A stretch of 58,937 nt of DNA from a bacterium (GCA_030699685.1 JAUYLJ010000016.1:1-58937); one strand, 5' to 3'; counted from the first letter of the stretch, positions 6,701 through 27,944 are shown. Notes: generated by a model not told the origin, from the letters alone. Made by a program: numbers and translations.

Positions 6701-8190
<1,490 letters not shown>

Positions 8191-17201: not shown

Positions 17202-19865
17202 CTATCTGTTCCCGTGCCGCGCGATCACGTCCTCGGCTTCTTCCATCTTGACCGAGAGAATCTTCGACACGCCGTCGCTTTGCATGGTCACGCCGTAGAG
17301 CAGATTGGCTTTCTGCATGGTGGCGCGATTGTGGGTGATGGAGATGAACTGAGTGGAGTGGGCCAGCTCGTCGAGAATATTGGCCAGCTTGAGAGAGTTG
17401 GCTTCATCGAGGGCGGCGTCTACCTCGTCCAGGACGACGAAGGGCGATGGATTGTTGGCAATGATGGCGCAGATCAGCGCGATGGACGTCAGTGCTTTTT
17501 CTCCGCCGGATAGCATGTTGATGCTGGAAATGCGTTTTCCAGGCGGGACGGCGTGGATATCAATACCACTAATGGCTTTGCCGATCACCTTTGGTTGGCG
17601 TGGTGACTTTTCCTCTTCGCTATTTTCCTCCTCGTCATCCTCTTCTTCGTCGTAGTCGTCTTGTTCAGCCAGGATATCAGACTTTTGTAATACGAGCTTG
17701 GCTGAACCCCCTTTGAACAACATCTTGAAATAGCGGCCGAACTCGGCGCTGATTTTCTGGAAAGCGCGATCGAACTGCTGCTTAATGGTTTCATCAAGCT
17801 CCCCGATAGCTTTTTCGAGCGAGGCCAAGGCAGCCAGAAGATCCTCAGATTGCCCTTTTAGGAATTCGTGACGTTCGTTTGTTTGTTCAAATTCATCCGT
17901 TACCCCTTCGTCAATTCCGCCGATTAGCTCAAGCTGGCGTTTCAATTGATGGATTGAGTCAAGAAGAGAAGCGGCAGTTTGTTCGCCGAGGAATTGTTTC
18001 GGATCTTTGGCAATGTCGTCCACTGTCGGCTCAGGCAGCTCCTCTCGCATTTCCCGATTGAGGTCATCACGACGCGTCTCCAGCCGTGCTTGTTGCACTC
18101 GATGCTCGTTCAATGTCTGGGTGACGGCGTTGAGCTCGTTTTGATGATCGCGGAATTGCTTTTGCAGACGGAACAAATAATCTTTTTTCTCCTGCTCTTG
18201 CTGATTGAAACTGGTAATTTTTTCTCGGGCTGTTTTGAGTTCCTGATCAAGTTTCTCAATTTTTGCCGTCAGATGCTTGTGTTCGGTATCTTCAGCGTTG
18301 GCGTCCTTATCTTTGCCTTCAAGTTGTCTCAGTTCTTTATCCGCTCGTTCGAGCTCGCTTTCCACTTCACTTTGTTTATCGTGGAGAACGAGATCTTTTT
18401 CTTCCAGAGTGCGGACTGTTACGACCAGATCGTTTATTTCGTTGACCAAGTTGTCTTTTGACTTCAAGAAGTTTGACAGCTCGCTTTGGAGCCGCAGCAC
18501 TTCTTCGGTGGTGGTGGTTGGAGCCGAGCGGGCAATCTCCTTGGTATATTTATCCAGGCTGTGGTGGATATCCTGGGCTTGGCGCTTAAGTCGAGTGATG
18601 TCGTCAGCCGATTCGGCAGTATTCAGTTTTTTTAAGAATTCGGCATATCGAGTTTCGATAGTCCGTAGATGGTCGGCAATTTCCGGAATGGGCAAGGGTT
18701 TGTTGGCAGTCAGCCGTTCGCGAGCTACCAGCAGCGTTTGTTCCAGATCTTCAAACTGACTGACGACCTTGGCCTGATCCTTGCGTTTCCGCTCTAACTC
18801 GCTGCGGGCGCTTTGAAGCTTCTTCTTCAGCGGTTCCATATCGTCGCTCAATTCTTGCTGGGTGCGGACTAGCAACTCACGGCGTTTCGTCAGCCATACT
18901 TTATTGACCTCACCCGCCTGCATGGATTCCATTTCCCAGCGGCCTTTCAGCGAAGCCTGCTCTTGCAGCAAAGTGTTTTTCTCATCAAGTACGCGGTTGT
19001 ACTCTTTTTGCAGCTGGCGGAAACTCTCTTCCCGAGACGTCTCCCGTTCTATTTTCTCAAGTTCATTTTGTACCTTGCGCAATTTGGCTGCCGCCTCATT
19101 TTTCACTTTTTCAGTATCGTTTTGCTGGGTGCTGACGACGTCGAGTTCGTTTTTCAGCTCCTGCCAGAGACCGCTGTAATATTGCTTTTGCACTTCCCGC
19201 AGCTCGGCTTCCACGGTTTCGCGTTTTTCCAAGCGCCGTACCTGGCGGGTGAGCGTACGCAGGCGGGGTTCGATTTCTTGCAATAGGAGCTCGGCTTGAC
19301 GCAAATTATCCTTGGTTCGATCAAGCTTCTGTTCGGCCTGCTCTTTCTTGATCTGGTATTGGCGGACGCCGGCCGCTTCGTCAAAAAACTCCTTCCGTTC
19401 CTGCGACGAAGAATTCAAAATTGAATCAATCATGCCCTGGCCGATGACGGAGTAGCTGCGCTGGCCGAAGTTGGATTTAGCCAGGAGAAGGACGATGTCT
19501 TGAAGCCGCACCTTGTTCTTATTGAGCAGGTATTCACCTTCGCCTGAGCGGTGCATGCGGCGGGTGATGACTACTTCCGGGTAATCAATCGCCATCGCCC
19601 CATCCTCATTATTAATATGCAAAGAAACTTCAGCCATGCCCAGCCTGGCTTTTTTGTCGGAACCGGAAAAAATCACATCTTCGGACTTCTTTCCTCGCAA
19701 AAGCTTGAGGCTCTGTTCGCCCATCACCCAGCGGATAGCATCGGCCACGTTGGATTTGCCAGAACCATTCGGCCCGACGATGGCGGCGATACCCCGGTTG
19801 AATTCCATCACGGTTTTGTTCGCGAAGGACTTGAAGCCCTGTATTTCGATTTTTTGGAGATGCAT
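17202..19865 (-). CDS. smc: SMC-family chromosome segregation ATPase (short form)
   Basis: GFKSF, Walker A GPNGSGKSN, signature LSGGEK, Walker B VVLDEVDAALD and long coiled coils; 887 aa. Confidence 0.93.
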   Translation of the reverse strand: MHLQKIEIQGFKSFANKTVMEFNRGIAAIVGPNGSGKSNVADAIRWVMGEQSLKLLRGKKSEDVIFSGSDKKARLGMAEVSLHINNEDGAMAIDYPEVVITRRMHRSGEGEYLLNKNKVRLQDIVLLLAKSNFGQRSYSVIGQGMIDSILNSSSQERKEFFDEAAGVRQYQIKKEQAEQKLDRTKDNLRQAELLLQEIEPRLRTLTRQVRRLEKRETVEAELREVQKQYYSGLWQELKNELDVVSTQQNDTEKVKNEAAAKLRKVQNELEKIERETSREESFRQLQKEYNRVLDEKNTLLQEQASLKGRWEMESMQAGEVNKVWLTKRRELLVRTQQELSDDMEPLKKKLQSARSELERKRKDQAKVVSQFEDLEQTLLVARERLTANKPLPIPEIADHLRTIETRYAEFLKKLNTAESADDITRLKRQAQDIHHSLDKYTKEIARSAPTTTTEEVLRLQSELSNFLKSKDNLVNEINDLVVTVRTLEEKDLVLHDKQSEVESELERADKELRQLEGKDKDANAEDTEHKHLTAKIEKLDQELKTAREKITSFNQQEQEKKDYLFRLQKQFRDHQNELNAVTQTLNEHRVQQARLETRRDDLNREMREELPEPTVDDIAKDPKQFLGEQTAASLLDSIHQLKRQLELIGGIDEGVTDEFEQTNERHEFLKGQSEDLLAALASLEKAIGELDETIKQQFDRAFQKISAEFGRYFKMLFKGGSAKLVLQKSDILAEQDDYDEEEDDEEENSEEEKSPRQPKVIGKAISGIDIHAVPPGKRISSINMLSGGEKALTSIALICAIIANNPSPFVVLDEVDAALDEANSLKLANILDELAHSTQFISITHNRATMQKANLLYGVTMQSDGVSKILSVKMEEAEDVIARHGNR

Positions 19866-20155
19866 GAAGGGAGAAAGAAAATGACTGTCATTTTCGAACA
19901 GACTCTGAATGAAAGTATATGGGTTTTAGGGAAGGAAAGCAAGGGGTTTAGAAGAATTTTAAGCTACAAATTATTAATTATGAAACAGGTGCTTATGTCC
20001 ATTCCATGTAGCGTTAGTAGTAATTTGTCACTAGTAACGGGGCAATACTTGCAAATGACAAATTACAAAGCGCTAATGGCTTTTTTGTAGTTTATCCTTG
20101 TTTTTTGCTATAGTGCATGATAGTAGGACGAAAGAAACATTGTCGGGGCAAGCAT

Positions 20156-21307
20156 ATGAAAAAATTAGCAATCATAATAGGACTCGTTATTCTTGGAACA
20201 GCGGTTTTCTTGATTCTGCGGAATAACCCAACCCTGGAAGTTGAGAATGAAAATACGAATGGGCTTGAGATCAATGGGGGTGATGGCAACAGTTCCCTCA
20301 ACAGCAATGATGCGTTACGGCAGGAGCTTGAAGAATCAGCCGCTCAACCCGAAATTAAAACGATATTAGCTTCTGAAGTCTCCAATGTTGACAGCGGTTT
20401 CACATTTTCCGCCGTGGTACCAGTTGCTTGGGAGCTTGAGGCAGTACCAGCACTCGAATCAATAAATATTTTTGACCCGGCGGCTGCTAATGAATCGTCG
20501 TTGGAACAATCCCAGATTTTTATCCGGCAATTTATGGCCAATGACTTTCTGACACTATCAACGGTAACAATTCACTCTCGCGAAGAACTGACGATCAATG
20601 GCCGGCCAGCCGTTCGCTATGACATAGAGAAAAAGGCGGGAGTAGCTGATTTCCCTGATCAACCCTCTTGGCGTAACGAGCGGCACGTCGTGACCGATAT
20701 CAAGGTAATGGATCAGAACCCCTCGGTGTTTTACGTCATTGCCCGGCGGCCGGGGCTTGATGACGCAATTTATCAAGATTTTCTGGATAGTCTGAACCTA
20801 GATTATAAACCTGAGGCCGGGCTGGTGGAACCGGTGGAAGAATTCCGGGAGCGAATTACGCTGAAGCGCTTTGGTACCTATATCACGCCGGAGACTTCTC
20901 CAGTCCAGCCAGAGCGCTTTACCGGCTATCACACCGGAGTGGACGTGGAGTTTGCGGATGTCGATACGGAAATTCAGGTCCGCGCTATCGCCGAAGGAGA
21001 AGTGATAGAGGCTCAGACGGTGTCGGGGTATGGCGGTGTGGTGGTGATACGCCATACTATCAATGACGGACCATTATTGGCTCTCTATGGCCACCTTGAC
21101 GCGCAAACTATTCCAGCCAAGGGCTCGGCGGTGAGCGCGGGTGAAGCAATCGGCGTGTTAGGCGAAGGAGAAACGCTAGAAACAGACTTTGAAAGAAAAC
21201 ATCTGCATTTTGCTATGTTGAAAGGCTCGTCAGTGAATTTTCGCGGATATGTCCTTTCTGAAAATGAGTTAGGCGGATGGCATGACCCGCTGGAATTTTG
21301 GAGCTGA
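20156..21307 (+). CDS. M23 family metallopeptidase, membrane anchored
   Basis: HTGVD, YGHL and HLHF motifs; N-terminal TM; ATG 20156. Confidence 0.9.
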   Translation: MKKLAIIIGLVILGTAVFLILRNNPTLEVENENTNGLEINGGDGNSSLNSNDALRQELEESAAQPEIKTILASEVSNVDSGFTFSAVVPVAWELEAVPALESINIFDPAAANESSLEQSQIFIRQFMANDFLTLSTVTIHSREELTINGRPAVRYDIEKKAGVADFPDQPSWRNERHVVTDIKVMDQNPSVFYVIARRPGLDDAIYQDFLDSLNLDYKPEAGLVEPVEEFRERITLKRFGTYITPETSPVQPERFTGYHTGVDVEFADVDTEIQVRAIAEGEVIEAQTVSGYGGVVVIRHTINDGPLLALYGHLDAQTIPAKGSAVSAGEAIGVLGEGETLETDFERKHLHFAMLKGSSVNFRGYVLSENELGGWHDPLEFWS

Positions 21308-21744: not shown

Positions 21745-24531
21745 CTATTTGAGGTAGACCAGCTTCTGACTGACGGAGCTCGTGCTTGTCGTGAGACGCA
21801 CGAAGTACACGCCAGCGGCCAGAGAACGGTCGCGCCAGGAGACGCGGTAGTCACCGGGATCCTGGATCTCGTTGTCAACCAGTGTGGCGATTCTCCGGCC
21901 CTGGGGGTCGAAGACACCGAGATCGACACGGGACAGGCCCGGCAGCGTGTAGCTGATGGTTGTCCCACTGGTCGTAGCCGGATTTGGACCGAGCGACATC
22001 CGCAAGACCGCACGTGCCGCGGTTTCCGGGGCCGAGGAAGGATGAAGCATGTCGGGCAGCCAGACAGGCAGCCCGTAGGTCATCGCCCTCGAGAGGAAAT
22101 CGCGCATCGACGGTTGGGTGTGCCACAGGCGCCGAATGACGCGAAGGTAGATGTCGCCAACCAGCGACAAGTCTTCTGCCATCAGGCGCTCCTGAAAGTA
22201 CTCACGGGCGAATTCGAGGTAGAGCGCCTCTGGTCCGCCGCGGGAGTTTCCAAGAAGCAAGACGACTGAGGCTCCCTCGTCCGGATCAGCCACCGTCACC
22301 ATCTTGGCGAGGCCTGGGTAATAGCTGGGGTTGTTTCTATCCCCATCGCCCAGGCCGCATCCCACAAACTCGGCTACGATCCGCTTCTTCACGGGCAGGT
22401 AGCTCATGTCAAAGATAGGATCATACACCCGCTGGACGATGTAGCCGGGCCAAATGTTGCGGTTGGTGGTTCGGCCGGTACCGATCCACTCCTGGCGGTA
22501 GGCGTTGGCCACGAAGGCATCGAGCCGCTCACCGTATGAGTTGCAGTCGTCGAAGTCGCTGTCACGAATCGGCAGGTAGGAGATACCCGCGTCCTCGAAC
22601 CAGCCGCCGATCTCGTTGAAGGTCAGCCGCGGTTCGTCGGTAATGTTGCACAAGCTGCCGCGATCGCCGACCAGCGCCAGCACGCCCGGGTTGGGGATGT
22701 TGACGCCGTTGTAGTACTCCATCGCAGACTGGACCGCGTTCTCGACCTCGAAGAGCTGATAGGCAGCGACTCGATACGGCAGAACTTCCGGGCCGTCACC
22801 ATAGAAGTCGGTGATGGCCAGATCGCTGGCGCAGGATGACCAGTAGCAGTCGTCATACTCATTGTCGGGATGATAGGTCGTCCCGACCTTGTTCTTCTCT
22901 GGTTCGAGGCCCTCGTTGGCTTCACCAACGATGACGAGCAAGGGCCGCCGCCGCCAATCCGCGTTGACGCAAGATTCGAAGACCCCGCGCATGACATTGC
23001 GACATTCGTAGGGGTCTTCTGAGCCGAGGATCTTTTTGCACACCCAACCCTGATCTTCCCACCATTGGATGACGGGATCGCATGCGTCGAGGAAGTCGCC
23101 TCGCGAGGAGTAGAACACGATGTCGGCCGGCGAATAAGGTCCGCCGCCGCCTTGCGCGTTCGGATCCTGCATGACAGGCAAGGGTCTTGGGAGGGTATTG
23201 GTTGTTCGTAGAAGTTCTAGGTTGGCGGGTGGCACAGAACTCCGGTTGAAGGGTCGCGTTGAGTACTCTGTGTCGGGATCATCATCGGTCTCGACCACCT
23301 CGTACGCATCCGCTCCGACCGGGTCGACTACCTCGTAGTAGTGCGGCCAGTCGGGACCTCCTTCAGCGGGGACGACACCGACGACACGATCCCGGCTCTT
23401 GCCGGCGTAGACCGTGAAGTACTGCGACCCCAGCTCCGGGTCGGTGCTCCAGCAGACGTGGGTGCCGTTGACCTCCTCCCAGGCCCAGGCTCCTTCGAAG
23501 CCGCAAGCCGTATTTGGGTCGTCCGGCACGTCCGCGTAGACGGAAAACTCGTACTCTCCGCCGTTCGGCCCGATACCGTCGGCGTCGAAAGGCTTCCCGC
23601 CTCGTGAGAGCGCTTCGTCGGTCACCATGATCGTGACATCTCCTGGGTCGTAGGGGTGGATGATGAACTCTATCTCATCCCCACGAACGTCGATGTCACG
23701 AAGCACTGCCCGGCCGTTCGCCACGACCGGCGCCCGGTCAGTCAGGTCATCTAACATGTCACTATCGAAACGCACCCAGCCCGGCGTGTCTTCGTAGATG
23801 ACGCCGCCGTTTTGCGGCTCCACCTCGAGAAGTACCGGCGACAGAACCGTCTCGCCGTTCTTGAACTGCGCTAGGTTTGGAGCGAGAATGATGGCGTTAC
23901 CAACCTGCCGATTGTCAATACCGTTACGTCCATCAAGCGCTCCGAAGAGCGTCTCGAAGTCCGAGACGGTGCAGCAAGTGTCGACGCAGGCCACCAGACA
24001 TCTGGCGTCCTGGTACCCGCTCTCCAGCCAAAACTGGCTCCAGCAAGCACGGTAGACGACGAGTTCCTCATTCCCGCCGTCGAAAAGGTAGTTGACGGTT
24101 TCAGGGTTGACGGCGATACCGTAGCCACCCGCCGACTGGGACTTCCAGATCTGGTATTCGTTCCATCCGTTGTCGAGATGGAACTCATACGCGTTGTCCC
24201 GATCGGTTTCGTTTGTGTATGCCTCATAGGTTGAGGCATATTCGGAACCGTGGGTCTCGACGAAGAAGATGGCCCGATGGTACTGCCACTCCAAGTAGAA
24301 CTTGAACTTGGCCAGACCACAGTCCGGAATCGATCCGCTGCCGGAGTCATTGCTAAAGGGAACATAGGCGTAGCCATGGTTGCGAATCACCTCTGGCATG
24401 ACCGAGTATCCTGTGTTCAGGTGGAAGTTGTACGGCTTCAACACCGTAGCGCTGTCGTAGAAGGGATCCCTCGCCGCCCCCATGTTCATGAGGAGCAGGA
24501 GAGTGACAGCAAGAAGCGTGAGCTTGTTCAT
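21745..24531 (-). CDS. Large secreted protein with a divergent C25 (gingipain-like) domain and a C-terminal T9SS/FlgD-type domain
   Basis: Signal peptide; C25-like motif order; C-terminus PNP...TISYTLP...VFDPQGRRIATL...AAGVYFVRL...QKLV. Confidence 0.8.
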   Translation of the reverse strand: MNKLTLLAVTLLLLMNMGAARDPFYDSATVLKPYNFHLNTGYSVMPEVIRNHGYAYVPFSNDSGSGSIPDCGLAKFKFYLEWQYHRAIFFVETHGSEYASTYEAYTNETDRDNAYEFHLDNGWNEYQIWKSQSAGGYGIAVNPETVNYLFDGGNEELVVYRACWSQFWLESGYQDARCLVACVDTCCTVSDFETLFGALDGRNGIDNRQVGNAIILAPNLAQFKNGETVLSPVLLEVEPQNGGVIYEDTPGWVRFDSDMLDDLTDRAPVVANGRAVLRDIDVRGDEIEFIIHPYDPGDVTIMVTDEALSRGGKPFDADGIGPNGGEYEFSVYADVPDDPNTACGFEGAWAWEEVNGTHVCWSTDPELGSQYFTVYAGKSRDRVVGVVPAEGGPDWPHYYEVVDPVGADAYEVVETDDDPDTEYSTRPFNRSSVPPANLELLRTTNTLPRPLPVMQDPNAQGGGGPYSPADIVFYSSRGDFLDACDPVIQWWEDQGWVCKKILGSEDPYECRNVMRGVFESCVNADWRRRPLLVIVGEANEGLEPEKNKVGTTYHPDNEYDDCYWSSCASDLAITDFYGDGPEVLPYRVAAYQLFEVENAVQSAMEYYNGVNIPNPGVLALVGDRGSLCNITDEPRLTFNEIGGWFEDAGISYLPIRDSDFDDCNSYGERLDAFVANAYRQEWIGTGRTTNRNIWPGYIVQRVYDPIFDMSYLPVKKRIVAEFVGCGLGDGDRNNPSYYPGLAKMVTVADPDEGASVVLLLGNSRGGPEALYLEFAREYFQERLMAEDLSLVGDIYLRVIRRLWHTQPSMRDFLSRAMTYGLPVWLPDMLHPSSAPETAARAVLRMSLGPNPATTSGTTISYTLPGLSRVDLGVFDPQGRRIATLVDNEIQDPGDYRVSWRDRSLAAGVYFVRLTTSTSSVSQKLVYLK

Positions 24532-24534
24532 GCG

Positions 24535-25227
24535 TCATTCCCCCACATAGCTCAGAGGCTTGGGTTGAAGGAAGACTGGCTGTGCTTCAGCCGGAATCCT
24601 CAGGTCCTGCGGGGTCCCACCTTCCTGCGCCTGCTCGATGATTCCGAGTAAGCGTGGACGGTCTTTCTGGTCGTAGATACCAACCAGTCTACCGTCCTGG
24701 AAGATGAAGATGTCGCCGTTATCCAGCATGCGCTGATAGGATGCCGCAACCTCGTGAAAAGTTGCGGACTGGAACAGCACATTGGATGTGTAGAGCTCTT
24801 CGATGTTTCCGTCATGGTATCGAACCCAGATGGCGCTTCCGCGCTTGGACGGAACAGCTTCAGCTACCACATCCGCGTGTTCACGGAGCACTTGGGCTCC
24901 TGCCGCTGCGATCTCGGGATAGCTTCCGCCTCGTTGGGCGGCTCTCATCATCACCTCGAAGGCTTCCCTGTCCGCGCGGCCTTTCGCCGTGTCGGAGTAG
25001 GCCTTGGGCACGGACTTGACCATGACCTCAGCCACAAAACCATTGATGGCGATGACGCTGTCTCCGTCGACGAAGCGCACTGAGACCAGGTTCGAGTCGG
25101 GGGTCGGAGTGACGGGGTTGCCGTCAATGATCACTTGCGTCTGGTTCCAGACTTCGGGCAGCTTGGCCTGCGCGGCCATACTGCAAAGAAGTCCGGTCAC
25201 AACCAGAACCAGAGTCATGAGTTTCAT
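24535..25227 (-). CDS. Secreted hypothetical protein
   Basis: Signal peptide ending AQA; SD AGGAGG; stop codon 3 nt before the next gene. Confidence 0.75.
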   Translation of the reverse strand: MKLMTLVLVVTGLLCSMAAQAKLPEVWNQTQVIIDGNPVTPTPDSNLVSVRFVDGDSVIAINGFVAEVMVKSVPKAYSDTAKGRADREAFEVMMRAAQRGGSYPEIAAAGAQVLREHADVVAEAVPSKRGSAIWVRYHDGNIEELYTSNVLFQSATFHEVAASYQRMLDNGDIFIFQDGRLVGIYDQKDRPRLLGIIEQAQEGGTPQDLRIPAEAQPVFLQPKPLSYVGE

Positions 25228-25897
25228 AGAGAACCTCCTCGCGTTTCCGCGATTTTTGGTATTCAGTTGTCAAGGATCGTTCCTTGACGTGCTTCTGCCG
25301 GCCACGCTGGCCTGGTTGCATCAGATCCTCTGGTGCACGCTGGGCGTCTATCCATCATATAGATGGGCGACCAGCAGCCTCGGGGAAGAGATAGCACAAT
25401 GAACACCTGGGATGTGAGGCGGTGGTATGTTTGGATGAATTGTTGTGGCGGTTTCGCTACTGGCTCCCCGCTGCTCAGCTCCCGTTTTTTGGCGGAAATA
25501 AGCGACCAATTTGAGTCAGCGGATCATTACCTCACATCTCTTGCCAGCTTATACCCTTAAGGAAATTTTTGTCAAGAAGGAAGATGAGGGGTAACGGGAA
25601 ATTAAATAATCGTTTTTGTGAGCTTACCTGTGGAAAATTTAGGTAGTTTTTTGGACAATTCAAGCACGATCTTCCTCCCTGCTTACTTCATCCAAAGAAA
25701 TGGATATCGGTTTGAACCACGTTACTATTCATTCGGGATGTTCATCGAAGCTTTGGCGGATTATTCGCATTGGCTAAAGGAGTTAACATAACACCTAAAT
25801 TTATTACCGCTCCGTAAGCCTAGCTCTATGCGAATAAAAAAACCCGGAGGGCTTGATAACCCACCGGGTATGTTTGAGTTTTGGTCCTGACCTGGTA

Positions 25898-26656
25898 TTA
25901 GGAACCAGTAGTCAGTCCCGGAGAGAGCGGCTTCCCGTATCTGGCCAGCTCTACCCAATGCTCTTTCGGGCGAATACGCTTCGACCCTGCTTGGCAGAGT
26001 GGGCAAACATCTGGACCGCTCCAGGTTTGGATGTCGTAGTGTGCGTAAGCTGTCACCGGTCTGTCTTCGAACACCGTCACATCCGACCGGTGAATGAGCA
26101 CTCCAACAACCGGTGCGAACCGGACTGGATGAGGATTGCCATCCCGGATTCCCTGACGGACTGCCTTCAGGGTGCTTGCAGTCGTCATGAGCTCTTCGAC
26201 CTGAAGGACAACCTCGTCGGGAGCAATGGTCAGCCGCTTCCACTGCTGGGTTTTTTCAGGACCCTTTACCGTGAAATCATGCTGAGCATTAGCTCCGATA
26301 GCCACGCTGTGAGAAAGATCGGCTCCAGCGTGGTCAGAGCCGATTACCCAATCAATCGCCCCGTTGTAGCGCTCCCGGATCTTTTCCAGGAGCTTGACGC
26401 CGAAGAGCTGGCAAAGGTTGGTGTATCTCAGAACGCGCAAAGTATCGATAAAGCCGTCACTGCAACCTCCGGCAGTGAGCTCGGCATGCGGATGTTCCGG
26501 ATTGCCGGAATGAAACCACATCGCTTCGCACAGGCCGAAGATATGGCCGATCTCAGCTTCTGAAAGATGGCGTCCGGCAAAGTGTTCGGATTCGAGCTGT
26601 CGGAGCTCGCCCACACTTGTCATTGCGAAGACGTCTTCGGAATTGAGAACTCCCAT
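25898..26656 (-). CDS. pyrE: Orotate phosphoribosyltransferase-like type I PRTase
   Basis: HAELTAG..SDGF, PRPP-loop variant VLQVEELMTTAST, C-terminal CPLC; directly downstream of pyrF. Confidence 0.75.
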   Translation of the reverse strand: MGVLNSEDVFAMTSVGELRQLESEHFAGRHLSEAEIGHIFGLCEAMWFHSGNPEHPHAELTAGGCSDGFIDTLRVLRYTNLCQLFGVKLLEKIRERYNGAIDWVIGSDHAGADLSHSVAIGANAQHDFTVKGPEKTQQWKRLTIAPDEVVLQVEELMTTASTLKAVRQGIRDGNPHPVRFAPVVGVLIHRSDVTVFEDRPVTAYAHYDIQTWSGPDVCPLCQAGSKRIRPKEHWVELARYGKPLSPGLTTGS

Positions 26657-26667
26657 TGCGTGTCATC

Positions 26668-27573
26668 CTATCCCTGCGACCCGACGCCCGGAGTAAGTAT
26701 CCGGTAACGGTTGATCTGGTTGTTGAGTTCTTCGGCCTTCAAGCCGGCGGCCTCGGCGAAGTCCTCTCCGTCAGAGGCGAAGATGATTCCGCGAGACGAG
26801 TTGATGATCATCCCGGTTCCATCCTCAGTTTGTCCGGCTTCTACCGCTAGCTGGACTGGGTCACCCTGAACTTCACCGTGATCCGCCTGTTGCTTCCCGA
26901 GGCCGGGATTGAGCAGGTAGACACGGTTTCCGATCGCCTCGCGCATCTGACGCAGCTCGCCGGGATAGGTGGCGCCCATGACGAGGCCGATGTTGCTGTT
27001 GGCGTTCCACTTGGCGGCGATCCGTCTGCCTGACCAGAGCCAATAAGGCTCAGTCAGAGGTTCACCATCCCTCACCCCGGTTAACACCGGCGCGTCTTGC
27101 ATCTCCTGGGCGCCGGGATTGCTGGTCCGGCAGACGAAGATGGCGCCGCGATCCGGACGCTCGAAGAAGGGCGCCATAGACTGGCTGCCCGGGTAGGATC
27201 CCAGCGTGACCGCGTCGGCGCCATAGACGTCGAAGCAGGTGCGGGCGTAGGCCTGGGCCGTGTTCAGGACGTCGAATCTCTTCGCGTCCAGGATAACGAC
27301 GTGATGATGATGCGTTCGGCGGAGTTCCTGGATGGCTTCGATCATCGCGCCCAGCATCCGCGCTTCTTCGTAGAAGGCAATCTGGAACTTGAAGAAGGCG
27401 CAGTGCGGCGCGCACTTCTCGGCGACAGCCAGAACGAACTCAACGATCGCGTCGTGCTGCGGCCGCTTTCGCAGATGGGCGGGTAGCTGACTGACGTCCA
27501 CGTCCATCCCGACGCAGACGAGGCTGTTGGTAAACTTCCAGGCCCGTTCAAGCCGTTCTCTGAAGGTGTCCAT
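26668..27573 (-). CDS. pyrF: Orotidine-5'-phosphate decarboxylase
   Basis: LVCVGMD, FKFQIAFYE, LDAKRFDV, CRTSNPG, VMGAT and INSSRGI motifs; ATG 27573 with SD GGAGG. Confidence 0.92.
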   Translation of the reverse strand: MDTFRERLERAWKFTNSLVCVGMDVDVSQLPAHLRKRPQHDAIVEFVLAVAEKCAPHCAFFKFQIAFYEEARMLGAMIEAIQELRRTHHHHVVILDAKRFDVLNTAQAYARTCFDVYGADAVTLGSYPGSQSMAPFFERPDRGAIFVCRTSNPGAQEMQDAPVLTGVRDGEPLTEPYWLWSGRRIAAKWNANSNIGLVMGATYPGELRQMREAIGNRVYLLNPGLGKQQADHGEVQGDPVQLAVEAGQTEDGTGMIINSSRGIIFASDGEDFAEAAGLKAEELNNQINRYRILTPGVGSQG

Positions 27574-27944
27574 GAGAAATCTTCCTCCCCGGTGGGTTGT
27601 TACCAGACTATGAAGGTGGTTCCGTACAGGTGGAGGACGAATCCTCCCCCCGGAGTCGGACAGCTGTCCGCGGGATAGCGGGATTCTGCACCCATTTCTC
27701 GGACGCTGAGCAAGCGTCCTTCGTCGCTCAGGCCGCAAGTAGCGGCTCCAGGTTCAGTCTTGTGACTGCTTGGAACCACCGCAGCCAAAAACGCGAAGCC
27801 GCGCAGTAGCATCGGTAGTATTCTCATCGTGCCCTCATGTGACGTGGTATTTTGTTGTCAGGGAGCAGTGCTCCCCTCCGTGAGCGCCACTATCGTATCA
27901 CGCGTCAATACGCCGGTCAAACAAAATAAAAAGTGAATGGATAA

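Follow-up and report, generated by a model that had tools for sequence, protein, structure and literature searches.

Gingipains, the RgpB and Kgp proteins of Porphyromonas gingivalis, belong to peptidase family C25 of clan CD and combine a two-subdomain fold with immunoglobulin (Ig)-like domains, a Sec signal peptide, and a type-A C-terminal domain of the secretion system of type IX (T9SS), which recognizes its cargo in the periplasm. Clan CD also holds PorU, the C25-type sortase of the T9SS, as well as the caspases (family C14) and the CHAT proteases. Among regulatory RNAs, riboswitches for cyclic di-guanosine monophosphate of class II (c-di-GMP-II) control adhesins, pili, and proteases in Clostridia. 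Here we describe a locus that bears likenesses to all of these systems. It lies at positions 21,745 to 25,227 on the minus strand of a 58,937-nucleotide stretch of bacterial DNA (GCA_030699685.1 JAUYLJ010000016.1:1-58937; the window) from a genome that we refer to as G000. We favor the reading that the locus is a self-contained, riboswitch-controlled two-gene surface cassette that is old and has been shared horizontally, and we give this reading as a whole an even chance of being correct. A preliminary description, made from the sequence alone, had proposed a gingipain-like probable pseudo-protease with a T9SS-type sorting domain in an apparent genome of the Candidate Phyla Radiation (CPR). 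Bacteria of this kind, the Patescibacteria, attach to other cells, and little is known about the surface proteins that mediate the contact and about the timing of their expression.

The large cassette gene encodes two clan-CD folds

The cassette consists of a large open reading frame (ORF), P0001 (21745-24531, minus strand, 928 amino acids), and a partner ORF, P0002 (24535..25227, minus strand, 230 amino acids), which is located 3 nt upstream of P0001 and corresponds to the secreted ORF that had been noticed in front of it. Judged by reading of the sequence, both N-termini resemble Sec-type signal peptides. In P0001, the signal-peptide-like stretch comprises residues 1-20 (24472..24531, minus strand), of which residues 2-14 form a helix in the structural model. 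All motifs listed in the preliminary description are present in P0001 (LLVIVGEANEG, CASDLAITDFYGDGPEVLPYRVAAY, LALVGDRG, WIGTGRTTNRNIW, EFVGCGLGDGD, LLGNSRGG, and TYGLPVWLP), as are the internal module FEGAWAWEEVNGTHVCWSTDPELGSQYFTVYAG and the C-terminal PNP...GVYFVRL.

The only Pfam match of P0001 was a sub-threshold one of its tail to Por_Secre_tail (PF18962; 20.5 bits, gathering score 27). Searched exhaustively, the cluster representatives yielded 43 related proteins at E <= 1e-30, most of them 930-990 amino acids long. In an alignment of 30 members, Pfam recognized Peptidase_C25 in 16 (E <= 0.01, best 1.1e-23), FlgD_ig in 27, and Por_Secre_tail in 19, and the ortholog from a sister genus, P0010, reached 33.4 bits on the C25 model (cut-off 23). 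Of the profile matches that had been expected at the outset, that of the tail to TIGR04183 was found, whereas Peptidase_C25 failed on P0001 itself and appeared in its relatives. When the family profile and two single members were compared with PDB sequences, they matched FlgD and the PorU tail only, and no gingipain. Since this search missed the gingipains, the C25 link of P0001 is based on the Pfam matches of its relatives and on structure.

The AlphaFold model of P0001, built on the 30-sequence alignment, has a predicted local distance difference test (pLDDT) value of 86.9 and a predicted template modeling (pTM) score of 0.76. In this model, residues 467-840 (22012..23133, minus strand) align structurally with RgpB and Kgp at Z 33.5-35 and a root-mean-square deviation of 2.5-3.1 Å over 319-325 residues (4ief_D, 1cvr, 6i9a_A, and 4rbm), and Foldseek gave an E value of 3.7e-13 for the domain. 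The same residues reached Z 17.2 with PorU and about 17 with separases. The C25 fold suspected at first is indeed present, and the relationship of P0001 to the gingipains is real but remote.

With regard to the catalytic residues of the gingipain-like domain, Cys725 occurs in all 30 family members. The position corresponding to the histidine of the gingipain GHG motif, G-x-G position 685 as assigned by strand-end topology and motif, is Thr in P0001 and His in none of the 30 members, and by this assignment the domain lacks the His-then-Cys dyad of family C25. The combination of a retained Cys with a missing canonical His agrees with the preliminary description. That the His was lost in Patescibacteria is contradicted by its absence from all 30 members, including those of T9SS-bearing bacteria.

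The domain could still be a working enzyme with a rewired site, in which Cys725 would act together with His762 or His771, Arg764, and Asp729 or Asp731, either as a peptidase or as a PorU-like transpeptidase, while the N-terminal domain would serve as a regulatory or pro-domain. The invariance of Cys725 favors such a scheme, as do the GDxDR stretch that follows it and the conservation of Arg764 (28/30), His771 (25/30), and His762 (18/30); moreover, PorU, a C25-type sortase with a tail of its own, is a structural neighbor. However, P0001 carries Asn762 and Tyr771, which would render this copy inactive under the scheme. In addition, the gingipain match is far better than that to PorU, the PorU model NF033707 matches nothing but the tail in the small genomes, and the geometry of the proposed site is read from sequence positions. 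We regard a rewired enzyme as unlikely.

The N-terminal domain (residues 22-233; 23833..24468, minus strand) represents a second fold of clan CD. Residues 16-233 superpose on the SAVED-CHAT protease 8tl0_C with Z 15.6 (163 aligned residues, 2.7 Å) and on caspase-7 entries with Z 10.2-11.1. In a structure search of the ESM Atlas with residues 20-235, CHAT clusters accounted for six of the ten nearest rows (template modeling score by query 0.59-0.66). No Pfam CHAT or C14 match was obtained for the domain; in the structure comparison, it displays the caspase-hemoglobinase fold of clan CD. Closer inspection revealed the motifs FFVETHG after the strand at residues 86-92 and VVYRAC after the strand at residues 157-161. 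His94 and Cys163 therein are conserved in 23 and 26, respectively, of the 29 filled alignment rows, and they would occupy the caspase catalytic positions according to strand-end topology and motif pattern. Since this second clan-CD domain keeps a His/Cys pair and looks intact, the term pseudo-protease fits at most one domain of the protein, the gingipain-like one that lacks the His.

The two heads are connected by two Ig-like β-sandwiches (residues 234-334 and 339-434; 23230..23832, minus strand), which are all-β in the model and show Z of about 8 to Ig-like domains. The internal F.GA...V.W module to which the preliminary description had drawn attention is part of the second sandwich, whereas the FlgD_ig signal is located in the C-terminal tail (8 of the 9 proteins tabulated by position). 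The caspase/CHAT-like head together with the His-less gingipain-like head is an undescribed clan-CD architecture.

A T9SS-type tail in a class in which SprA was not found

The C-terminal β-sandwich of P0001 (residues 841-928; 21748..22011, minus strand) is a T9SS type-A sorting or FlgD-Ig-like tail. Its assignment to T9SS type A was borne out by the NCBIfam model TIGR04183, on which residues 849-925 scored 32.3 bits (cut-off 23). This was the sole listed match in the NCBIfam scan of P0001, and a six-frame search gave 37.4 bits for the tail. Among the 30 family members, the PNP motif is kept in 27-29 and G907 and Y909 are kept in all. The family profile matched FlgD (7eh9, E 3.9e-8) better than the PorU tail (E 8.4e-5).

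G000 comprises 1,154,700 bases in 70 contigs and is 97.35% complete and 0.8% contaminated. Its 16S rRNA is 88.7% identical to that of G010, a metagenome-assembled genome (MAG) titled 'Patescibacteria group bacterium isolate STA_36' that is coded in the same family as G000 and whose coordinates agree with locus L002. All 60 sampled relatives have genomes of 0.7-1.4 Mb. G000 is thus a small-genome Patescibacteria-type organism, in line with the CPR-type host named in the preliminary description.

We found no SprA in 18 small genomes including G000, 17 of them of its class, and we found it in all six large carriers of the cassette (G004, G005, G376, G388, G425, and G505; 2.6-5.3 Mb). PorV-like proteins were absent from G000, G002, and G003, and the large carriers gave weak matches below the cut-off. 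Full-length PorU (NF033707) was not found in small genomes, where matches remained at the level of the tail; the model reached about 403 bits in G004 and G005. In G000, the NF033707 matches covered model positions 934-1079 (the tail) only, at 20-23 bits and on ORFs other than P0001. P0001 was also considered as a PorU-like sortase and was rejected as such, the PorU model having matched the tail part only. Omp85 was not found in G000, compared to 7 of 14 control genomes that were positive. With none of SprA, PorV, full PorU, or Omp85 found in G000, the supposition that the host genome is devoid of a T9SS stood up to scrutiny.

Of 151 sampled genomes of the class, 47 had 1-5 matches each to TIGR04183 that exceeded its cut-off, and the single-contig assemblies G042 and G117 are among the genomes with T9SS-type tails. 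Small genomes hold 1-4 such tails, versus 135 and at least 150 in large carriers; G000 has four, on unrelated proteins. T9SS-type tails are a class-wide habit. As SprA was absent from all 17 class genomes tested, the tail cannot act as a T9SS signal in this class. It probably has a second, T9SS-independent role there, and reading such tails as T9SS cargo in a tail-bearing class without the secretion system misleads annotation.

Other ORFs of G000 with a T9SS-type tail are C9:855-2999(+), C33:36-2087(+), C33:3394-3717(-), and C3:16501-17121(+). The tail-bearing ORFs of this genome include one of 714 amino acids with repeated GD..DG.D.. (FG-GAP-like) units, one of 683 amino acids with two internal repeats and poly-Pro between them, and a protein of 206 amino acids; several are found on short, GC-rich contigs.

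The preliminary description had suggested that the protein might use or jam the secretion pathway of a host. The tail might accordingly mimic host machinery, being recognized by attachment or shuttle proteins of the PorV/PorU type on the surface of a T9SS-bearing host and either anchoring the protein or blocking the processing of host cargo. The apparent constraint on the type-A motifs is compatible with this, the retention of the tail throughout a class without T9SS calls for an explanation, and the same cassette is present in T9SS-rich bacteria, which are plausible neighbors or donors and with which the Patescibacteria interleave in the tree (see below). However, the conserved positions also belong to the core of the sandwich, and FlgD Ig-like domains are matched better by the family profile than T9SS tails are. 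Recognition of cargo in the periplasm is normally out of reach for a protein secreted by an epibiont, and a pattern in which 47 of 151 genomes have 1-5 tails each, on proteins that are unrelated, resembles a general building block more than a targeted decoy. We consider such mimicry quite unlikely.

An aptamer of the c-di-GMP-II type precedes the cassette

Upstream of the partner gene, we identified a riboswitch aptamer of the c-di-GMP-II type (25437..25543, minus strand), which scored 40.4 bits on RF03169 (gathering score 40) and is the sole riboswitch match of this class in G000. The cassette is preceded by such an aptamer in G000, G010, G007, G001, G154, G041, G026, and G008, six of which are shown to be in the class of G000. 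The aptamer of G010 reached 45.2 bits on RF03169 and 52.4 bits on RF01786, that of G007 and of a near-identical metagenome contig 53.5 bits, and the two tandem aptamers of G001 63.4 and 65.5 bits; the remaining scores were 69 (G041), 55.5 (G026), 47.1 (G008), and 34.5 bits (G154, weak). Nine loci were scanned with Rfam at gathering thresholds, at which weak copies may escape. Four large-genome loci for which 3 kb or more of upstream sequence was available (L005, L006, L007, and L032) gave no riboswitch.

Across the class, the riboswitch occurs in 11 of 151 genomes, with six above the gathering score, and in 7 of these 11 one copy precedes the cassette. Of the remaining copies, some lie in front of small secreted proteins and others in front of CheY-like receiver genes. 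The latter arrangement is seen at L001:1489-2158, G010:C2:59151-59261, and G008:C1:295294-295409; at L001, the receiver gene is flanked by a pair of tandem aptamers, upstream of the cassette.

When 17 copies were aligned, 96.0% of the cells were paired, compared to 74.7% in shuffled alignments and 30-47% when the alignment was slid. Changes on both sides were observed for 13 of the 16 aptamer pairs, one pseudoknot pair being AU in eight copies, UA in seven, and GC in two, and the core nucleotides of the aptamer are invariant in all 17. Judged by covariance models and covariation, the riboswitch is structurally genuine and of the cyclic-dinucleotide type. Ten of the 17 aptamers, including that of the window, contain an extra hairpin of about 25-40 nt after the conserved GCUU (alignment A6, columns 49-88), which lowers the score on the standard Rfam model.

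Downstream of the aptamer in the window, a weak terminator-like hairpin (25404..25421, minus strand) represents a candidate expression platform, with a 5' arm, GCCUCA, that complements the invariant UGAGG. The aptamers of G010, G007, and G001 are followed by hairpins of 6-8 bp and runs of 5-7 U, and in three of these four hairpins (G010, G007, and the first of G001) GCCUCA again forms the 5' arm and complements the invariant UGAGG of the aptamer. Because the 5' arms of the terminator hairpins can pair with the invariant strand of the aptamer, we think it fairly probable that the element is an OFF switch, in which ligand binding would favor termination.

No c-di-GMP synthase was detected in these genomes. 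In six-frame searches, the GGDEF domain was found in none of the 11 riboswitch-bearing genomes of the class and in none of three further small carriers (G001, G009, and G107). DAC and EAL were absent from the 12 genomes searched, and SMODS was present in one of 12 (G007). Elsewhere, GGDEF occurred in both large carriers searched, in 8 of 14 controls, and in 34 of 151 class genomes, none of which bears the riboswitch. Genes for diguanylate cyclases are reported from certain ultra-small MAGs (PMC9938205), and in the accessible part of a review on Patescibacteria, riboswitches are mentioned only as possible tools (PMC11665869). Our literature search returned no paper that combines c-di-GMP, riboswitches, and the CPR, and none that joins a riboswitch class with the biology of Patescibacteria. 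Two papers mention the CPR together with the T9SS and, to judge from their titles and the openings of their abstracts, deal with predation.

The RNA element might therefore sense a different cyclic or linear dinucleotide made by an unrecognized enzyme, or it might be a relic that no longer switches. Besides the missing GGDEF, DAC, and EAL domains and the single SMODS, this is suggested by the copies of the window and of G010, which pass the 'GAG' variant model only; an engineered c-di-GMP-II variant is described as binding cGAMP (cyclic GMP-AMP) isomers (PMC13715770). On the other hand, several copies reach the canonical gathering score (53.5-69 bits), the presence of GGDEF in 34 of 151 class genomes indicates that c-di-GMP is native to the wider group, and the core that is invariant in 17 of 17 copies, together with the covarying helices, argues against decay. 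We hold a different ligand or a relic to be doubtful, with an appreciable chance nonetheless.

Distribution and probable horizontal sharing of the cassette

Every locus examined, whether of a small or a large genome, has a gene of 230-294 amino acids with a signal-peptide-like start immediately in front of the large gene. A chain of weak phmmer similarity connects the partners of G000, G010, G007, G001, G376, L006, and L007, to which G009 is joined via G001 and G007. The partners of G154 and G107 matched no other partner and are linked by position only, and the partner of the 800-residue variants (G005 and L032) looks unrelated. P0002 itself matched no Pfam or NCBIfam family; a word-based homolog search found only the protein itself, and a profile search retrieved four proteins. 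Its model (pLDDT 77.3) has no recognizable fold, the best PDB match (Z 5.5) being within noise and the Atlas yielding nothing usable.

P0001 without its tail was detected in 7 of 301 genomes of the class (four in family f1, one in f47, and two in f35) and in 5 of 201 genomes belonging to the same phylum as G005. A metagenome scan gave four loci only, and more distant versions of the cassette are present in G041, G026, and G008. The large gene is split in G008 (492 and 481 amino acids; L056, G008:C3:133300-137600) and is broken by a single TGA in G154 (L023, G154:C90) and in G004 (L025, G004:C83). The records of the carriers L001 and L003 (0.6 and 1.0 Mb) bear the title 'uncultured Gammaproteobacteria bacterium'.

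The contig with the cassette also carries smc (17202-19865) and the 16S rRNA gene (6701-8190). Three genomes (G000, G010, and G009) have the cassette beside smc, and two of them, G000 and G010, also have the 16S rRNA gene nearby on the same contig. This shared neighborhood argues against a chimera and for a residence of the cassette since before the genera split. The gene is also distinguished by its composition, as already noted in the preliminary description. The guanine-plus-cytosine (GC) content of the operon is 0.594, compared to 0.509 for the whole window, and the P0001 gene ranks at the 98th percentile among the 455 ORFs of at least 300 amino acids in the genome (mean 0.513, standard deviation 0.033). 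Its GC content at third codon positions is 0.748, the mean of the genome's ORFs being 0.577. The neighboring pyrF region is likewise GC-rich (0.57-0.585).

That the cassette is foreign to G000, stemming from a T9SS-bearing bacterium and having been joined to the genome by faulty binning or assembly, is largely refuted and has next to no chance. Such an artefact would account for the elevated GC content of the region and for the fact that its closest relatives outside the Patescibacteria come from genomes of about 62% GC. However, it is at odds with the 16S rRNA gene and smc on the same 58.9-kb contig, with the recurrence of the cassette beside smc in two further genera of the family (in one case on a contig of 344 kb with the 16S rRNA gene nearby), with the recurrence of the riboswitch type in the class, and with a contamination estimate of 0.8%. 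Bin contamination was rejected on account of the shared contig, the recurrence beside smc, and the low contamination.

In a maximum-likelihood tree of 43 rows, 8 Patescibacteria tips interleave with 5 T9SS-labelled tips. The tree implies at least three label changes among these 13 labelled tips, of which the starred branches force only one, and 30 of the 43 rows have no known source. The loci of the large-genome relatives have a GC content of about 62%, which fits the raised GC content of the cassette in G000. Patchy spread, interleaved tree, and raised GC content support horizontal sharing of the cassette with T9SS-rich bacteria, and a direction of transfer is at most suggested. Of the acquisition from an FCB-group host proposed in the preliminary description, the sharing with T9SS-rich bacteria is thus retained. 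The cassette gene in G000 is not a recent one-off.

Genomic surroundings and expression signals

Directly upstream of the cassette (25898-27738, minus strand), we found pyrF, which encodes orotidine monophosphate decarboxylase (Pfam E 1.1e-22), and a gene weakly resembling those of phosphoribosyltransferases. The GC content of pyrF (0.613) is among the highest in the genome, and genomes this reduced do not necessarily retain genes for pyrimidine synthesis. The gene next to the cassette (25898-26656) ends in a terminator-like hairpin followed by a T-run (25840..25854, minus strand; AAGCCCTCCGGGTTT then TTTTATTCGC). Since the upstream gene is closed by this terminator-like site, the cassette would form its own transcription unit. 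A promoter-like sequence read by eye (25548..25575, minus strand) consists of TTGACA, a spacer of 16 nt, and TATAAG, and it ends about 5 nt before the aptamer. A consensus promoter scan gave no promoter at the cassette; its rule demands a T as the sixth base of the -10 box. The partner gene is preceded by a Shine-Dalgarno-like GAGGAGG (25234..25240, minus strand) 6 nt before its ATG. On the other side, a gene for a membrane-anchored M23 peptidase (20117-21307, plus strand; Pfam E 3e-15) is convergent to the cassette and lies between the cassette and smc.

Proposed function of the cassette

We propose that a single transcript starting at the promoter just before the c-di-GMP-II aptamer would give rise to the small exported partner and then to the exported protein of 928 amino acids, with its caspase/CHAT-like head, two Ig-like spacers, His-less gingipain fold, and T9SS type-A or FlgD-Ig-like tail. 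The cassette would be an old module, common to bacteria that possess a full T9SS together with hundreds of tails and to several lineages of Patescibacteria that have neither T9SS nor outer membrane. In Patescibacteria, export would most likely proceed by Sec alone, and the tail would then be a plain surface or binding sandwich, not a secretion signal. The protein might act as a surface protease, an adhesin, or both, with envelope proteins of a host or prey cell as predicted targets. In this protein, activity would likely reside in the N-terminal head, with the gingipain-like domain serving as a pseudo-enzyme for substrate binding or scaffolding. Binding of a cyclic dinucleotide to the aptamer would shut off expression through termination of transcription. 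Because we detected no gene for making the ligand in these cells, the ligand would probably come from outside, for instance from a host cell.

In a more far-reaching version, certain lineages of Patescibacteria, unable to make c-di-GMP themselves, would keep the riboswitch to read the c-di-GMP of the host after cytoplasmic contact or uptake, and would thereby switch off a horizontally acquired, T9SS-cargo-like protease or adhesin cassette whose tail docks on the surface attachment machinery of a T9SS host. We consider this combination very unlikely; if true, the cassette would be a host-sensing and host-mimicking attachment device.

Several observations weigh against the reading of the locus as a riboswitch-controlled surface cassette with a gingipain-related protein. 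Regarding the protein, Pfam Peptidase_C25 (PF01364) gave no match to P0001 at E <= 0.1, and P0001 reaches no Pfam peptidase model. Position 685 was equated with the gingipain His, and His94 and Cys163 with the caspase catalytic residues, from strand-end topology and motif pattern. A few family members lack His94 or Cys163, and P0001, without His762 and His771, may be a copy under relaxed constraint. Regarding the RNA, the aptamer of the window scored 44.9 bits on RF01786 (E 1.6e-8), short of the gathering score (53.5), and it has a weak P1 stem and a weak terminator. Furthermore, scans at E <= 0.001 revealed no riboswitch in front of the cassette of G009 or G107. The search for synthases covered three Pfam families in six frames, so that other cyclases or another ligand are possible, and the contrast in GGDEF between 0 of 11 and 34 of 140 genomes is statistically not compelling, as well as being drawn from kin that are not independent. 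Finally, two carrier MAGs are titled Gammaproteobacteria, one of which (G057) is coded in the class of G000; these titles of small-genome carriers are probably mislabelled.

A surface cassette that is common to Patescibacteria and T9SS-rich bacteria, and probably exchanged between them, could point to hosts or neighbors of these organisms. In addition, a sound riboswitch without a detectable synthase raises the possibility that an epibiont reads the signal of another cell.

Comparison with known systems

Among the described systems, the gingipains RgpB and Kgp are closest to P0001. Both share the two-subdomain fold with a Cys after the equivalent strand, attached Ig-like domains, a Sec signal peptide (signal-peptide-like in P0001), and a T9SS type-A C-terminal domain. 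In contrast to the gingipains, the P0001 family has no His at the GHG-equivalent site (0/30), and P0001 itself remains below detection by Pfam C25. It carries an N-terminal caspase/CHAT-like domain instead of a pro-domain, is encoded together with a dedicated upstream partner gene, and resides in a host without T9SS. PorU (PDB 6za2) has the same clan-CD fold (Z 17.2) and a type-A tail of its own, which the family profile found at E 8.4e-5. It is much more distant from P0001 than the gingipains are, and no PorV, PorZ, or anionic lipopolysaccharide (A-LPS) context is present here.

The N-terminal domain has its fold in common with the SAVED-CHAT protein 8tl0 and with caspase-7, and it carries H-G and A-C motifs after hydrophobic strands. 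Unlike in CHAT proteins and caspases, this domain is predicted to be extracytoplasmic, is fused to a second clan-CD domain, and matches neither Pfam CHAT nor C14.

The RNA element agrees with c-di-GMP-II riboswitches (RF01786 and RF03169) in its aptamer core, pseudoknot, and helices, in its position upstream of secreted surface proteins, and in its terminator-type platform. It differs from those known by its occurrence in Patescibacteria genomes in which GGDEF and EAL were not detected and by the extra hairpin of 25-40 nt in many copies. The tail, in turn, resembles the T9SS type-A domains (TIGR04183 and PF18962) and the FlgD Ig-like domain (PF13860) as a sandwich of about 85 residues with PNP, GxY, and a terminal K. 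Unlike the tails of T9SS type-A cargo, such tails occur here in a class in which SprA was found in none of the 17 genomes tested.

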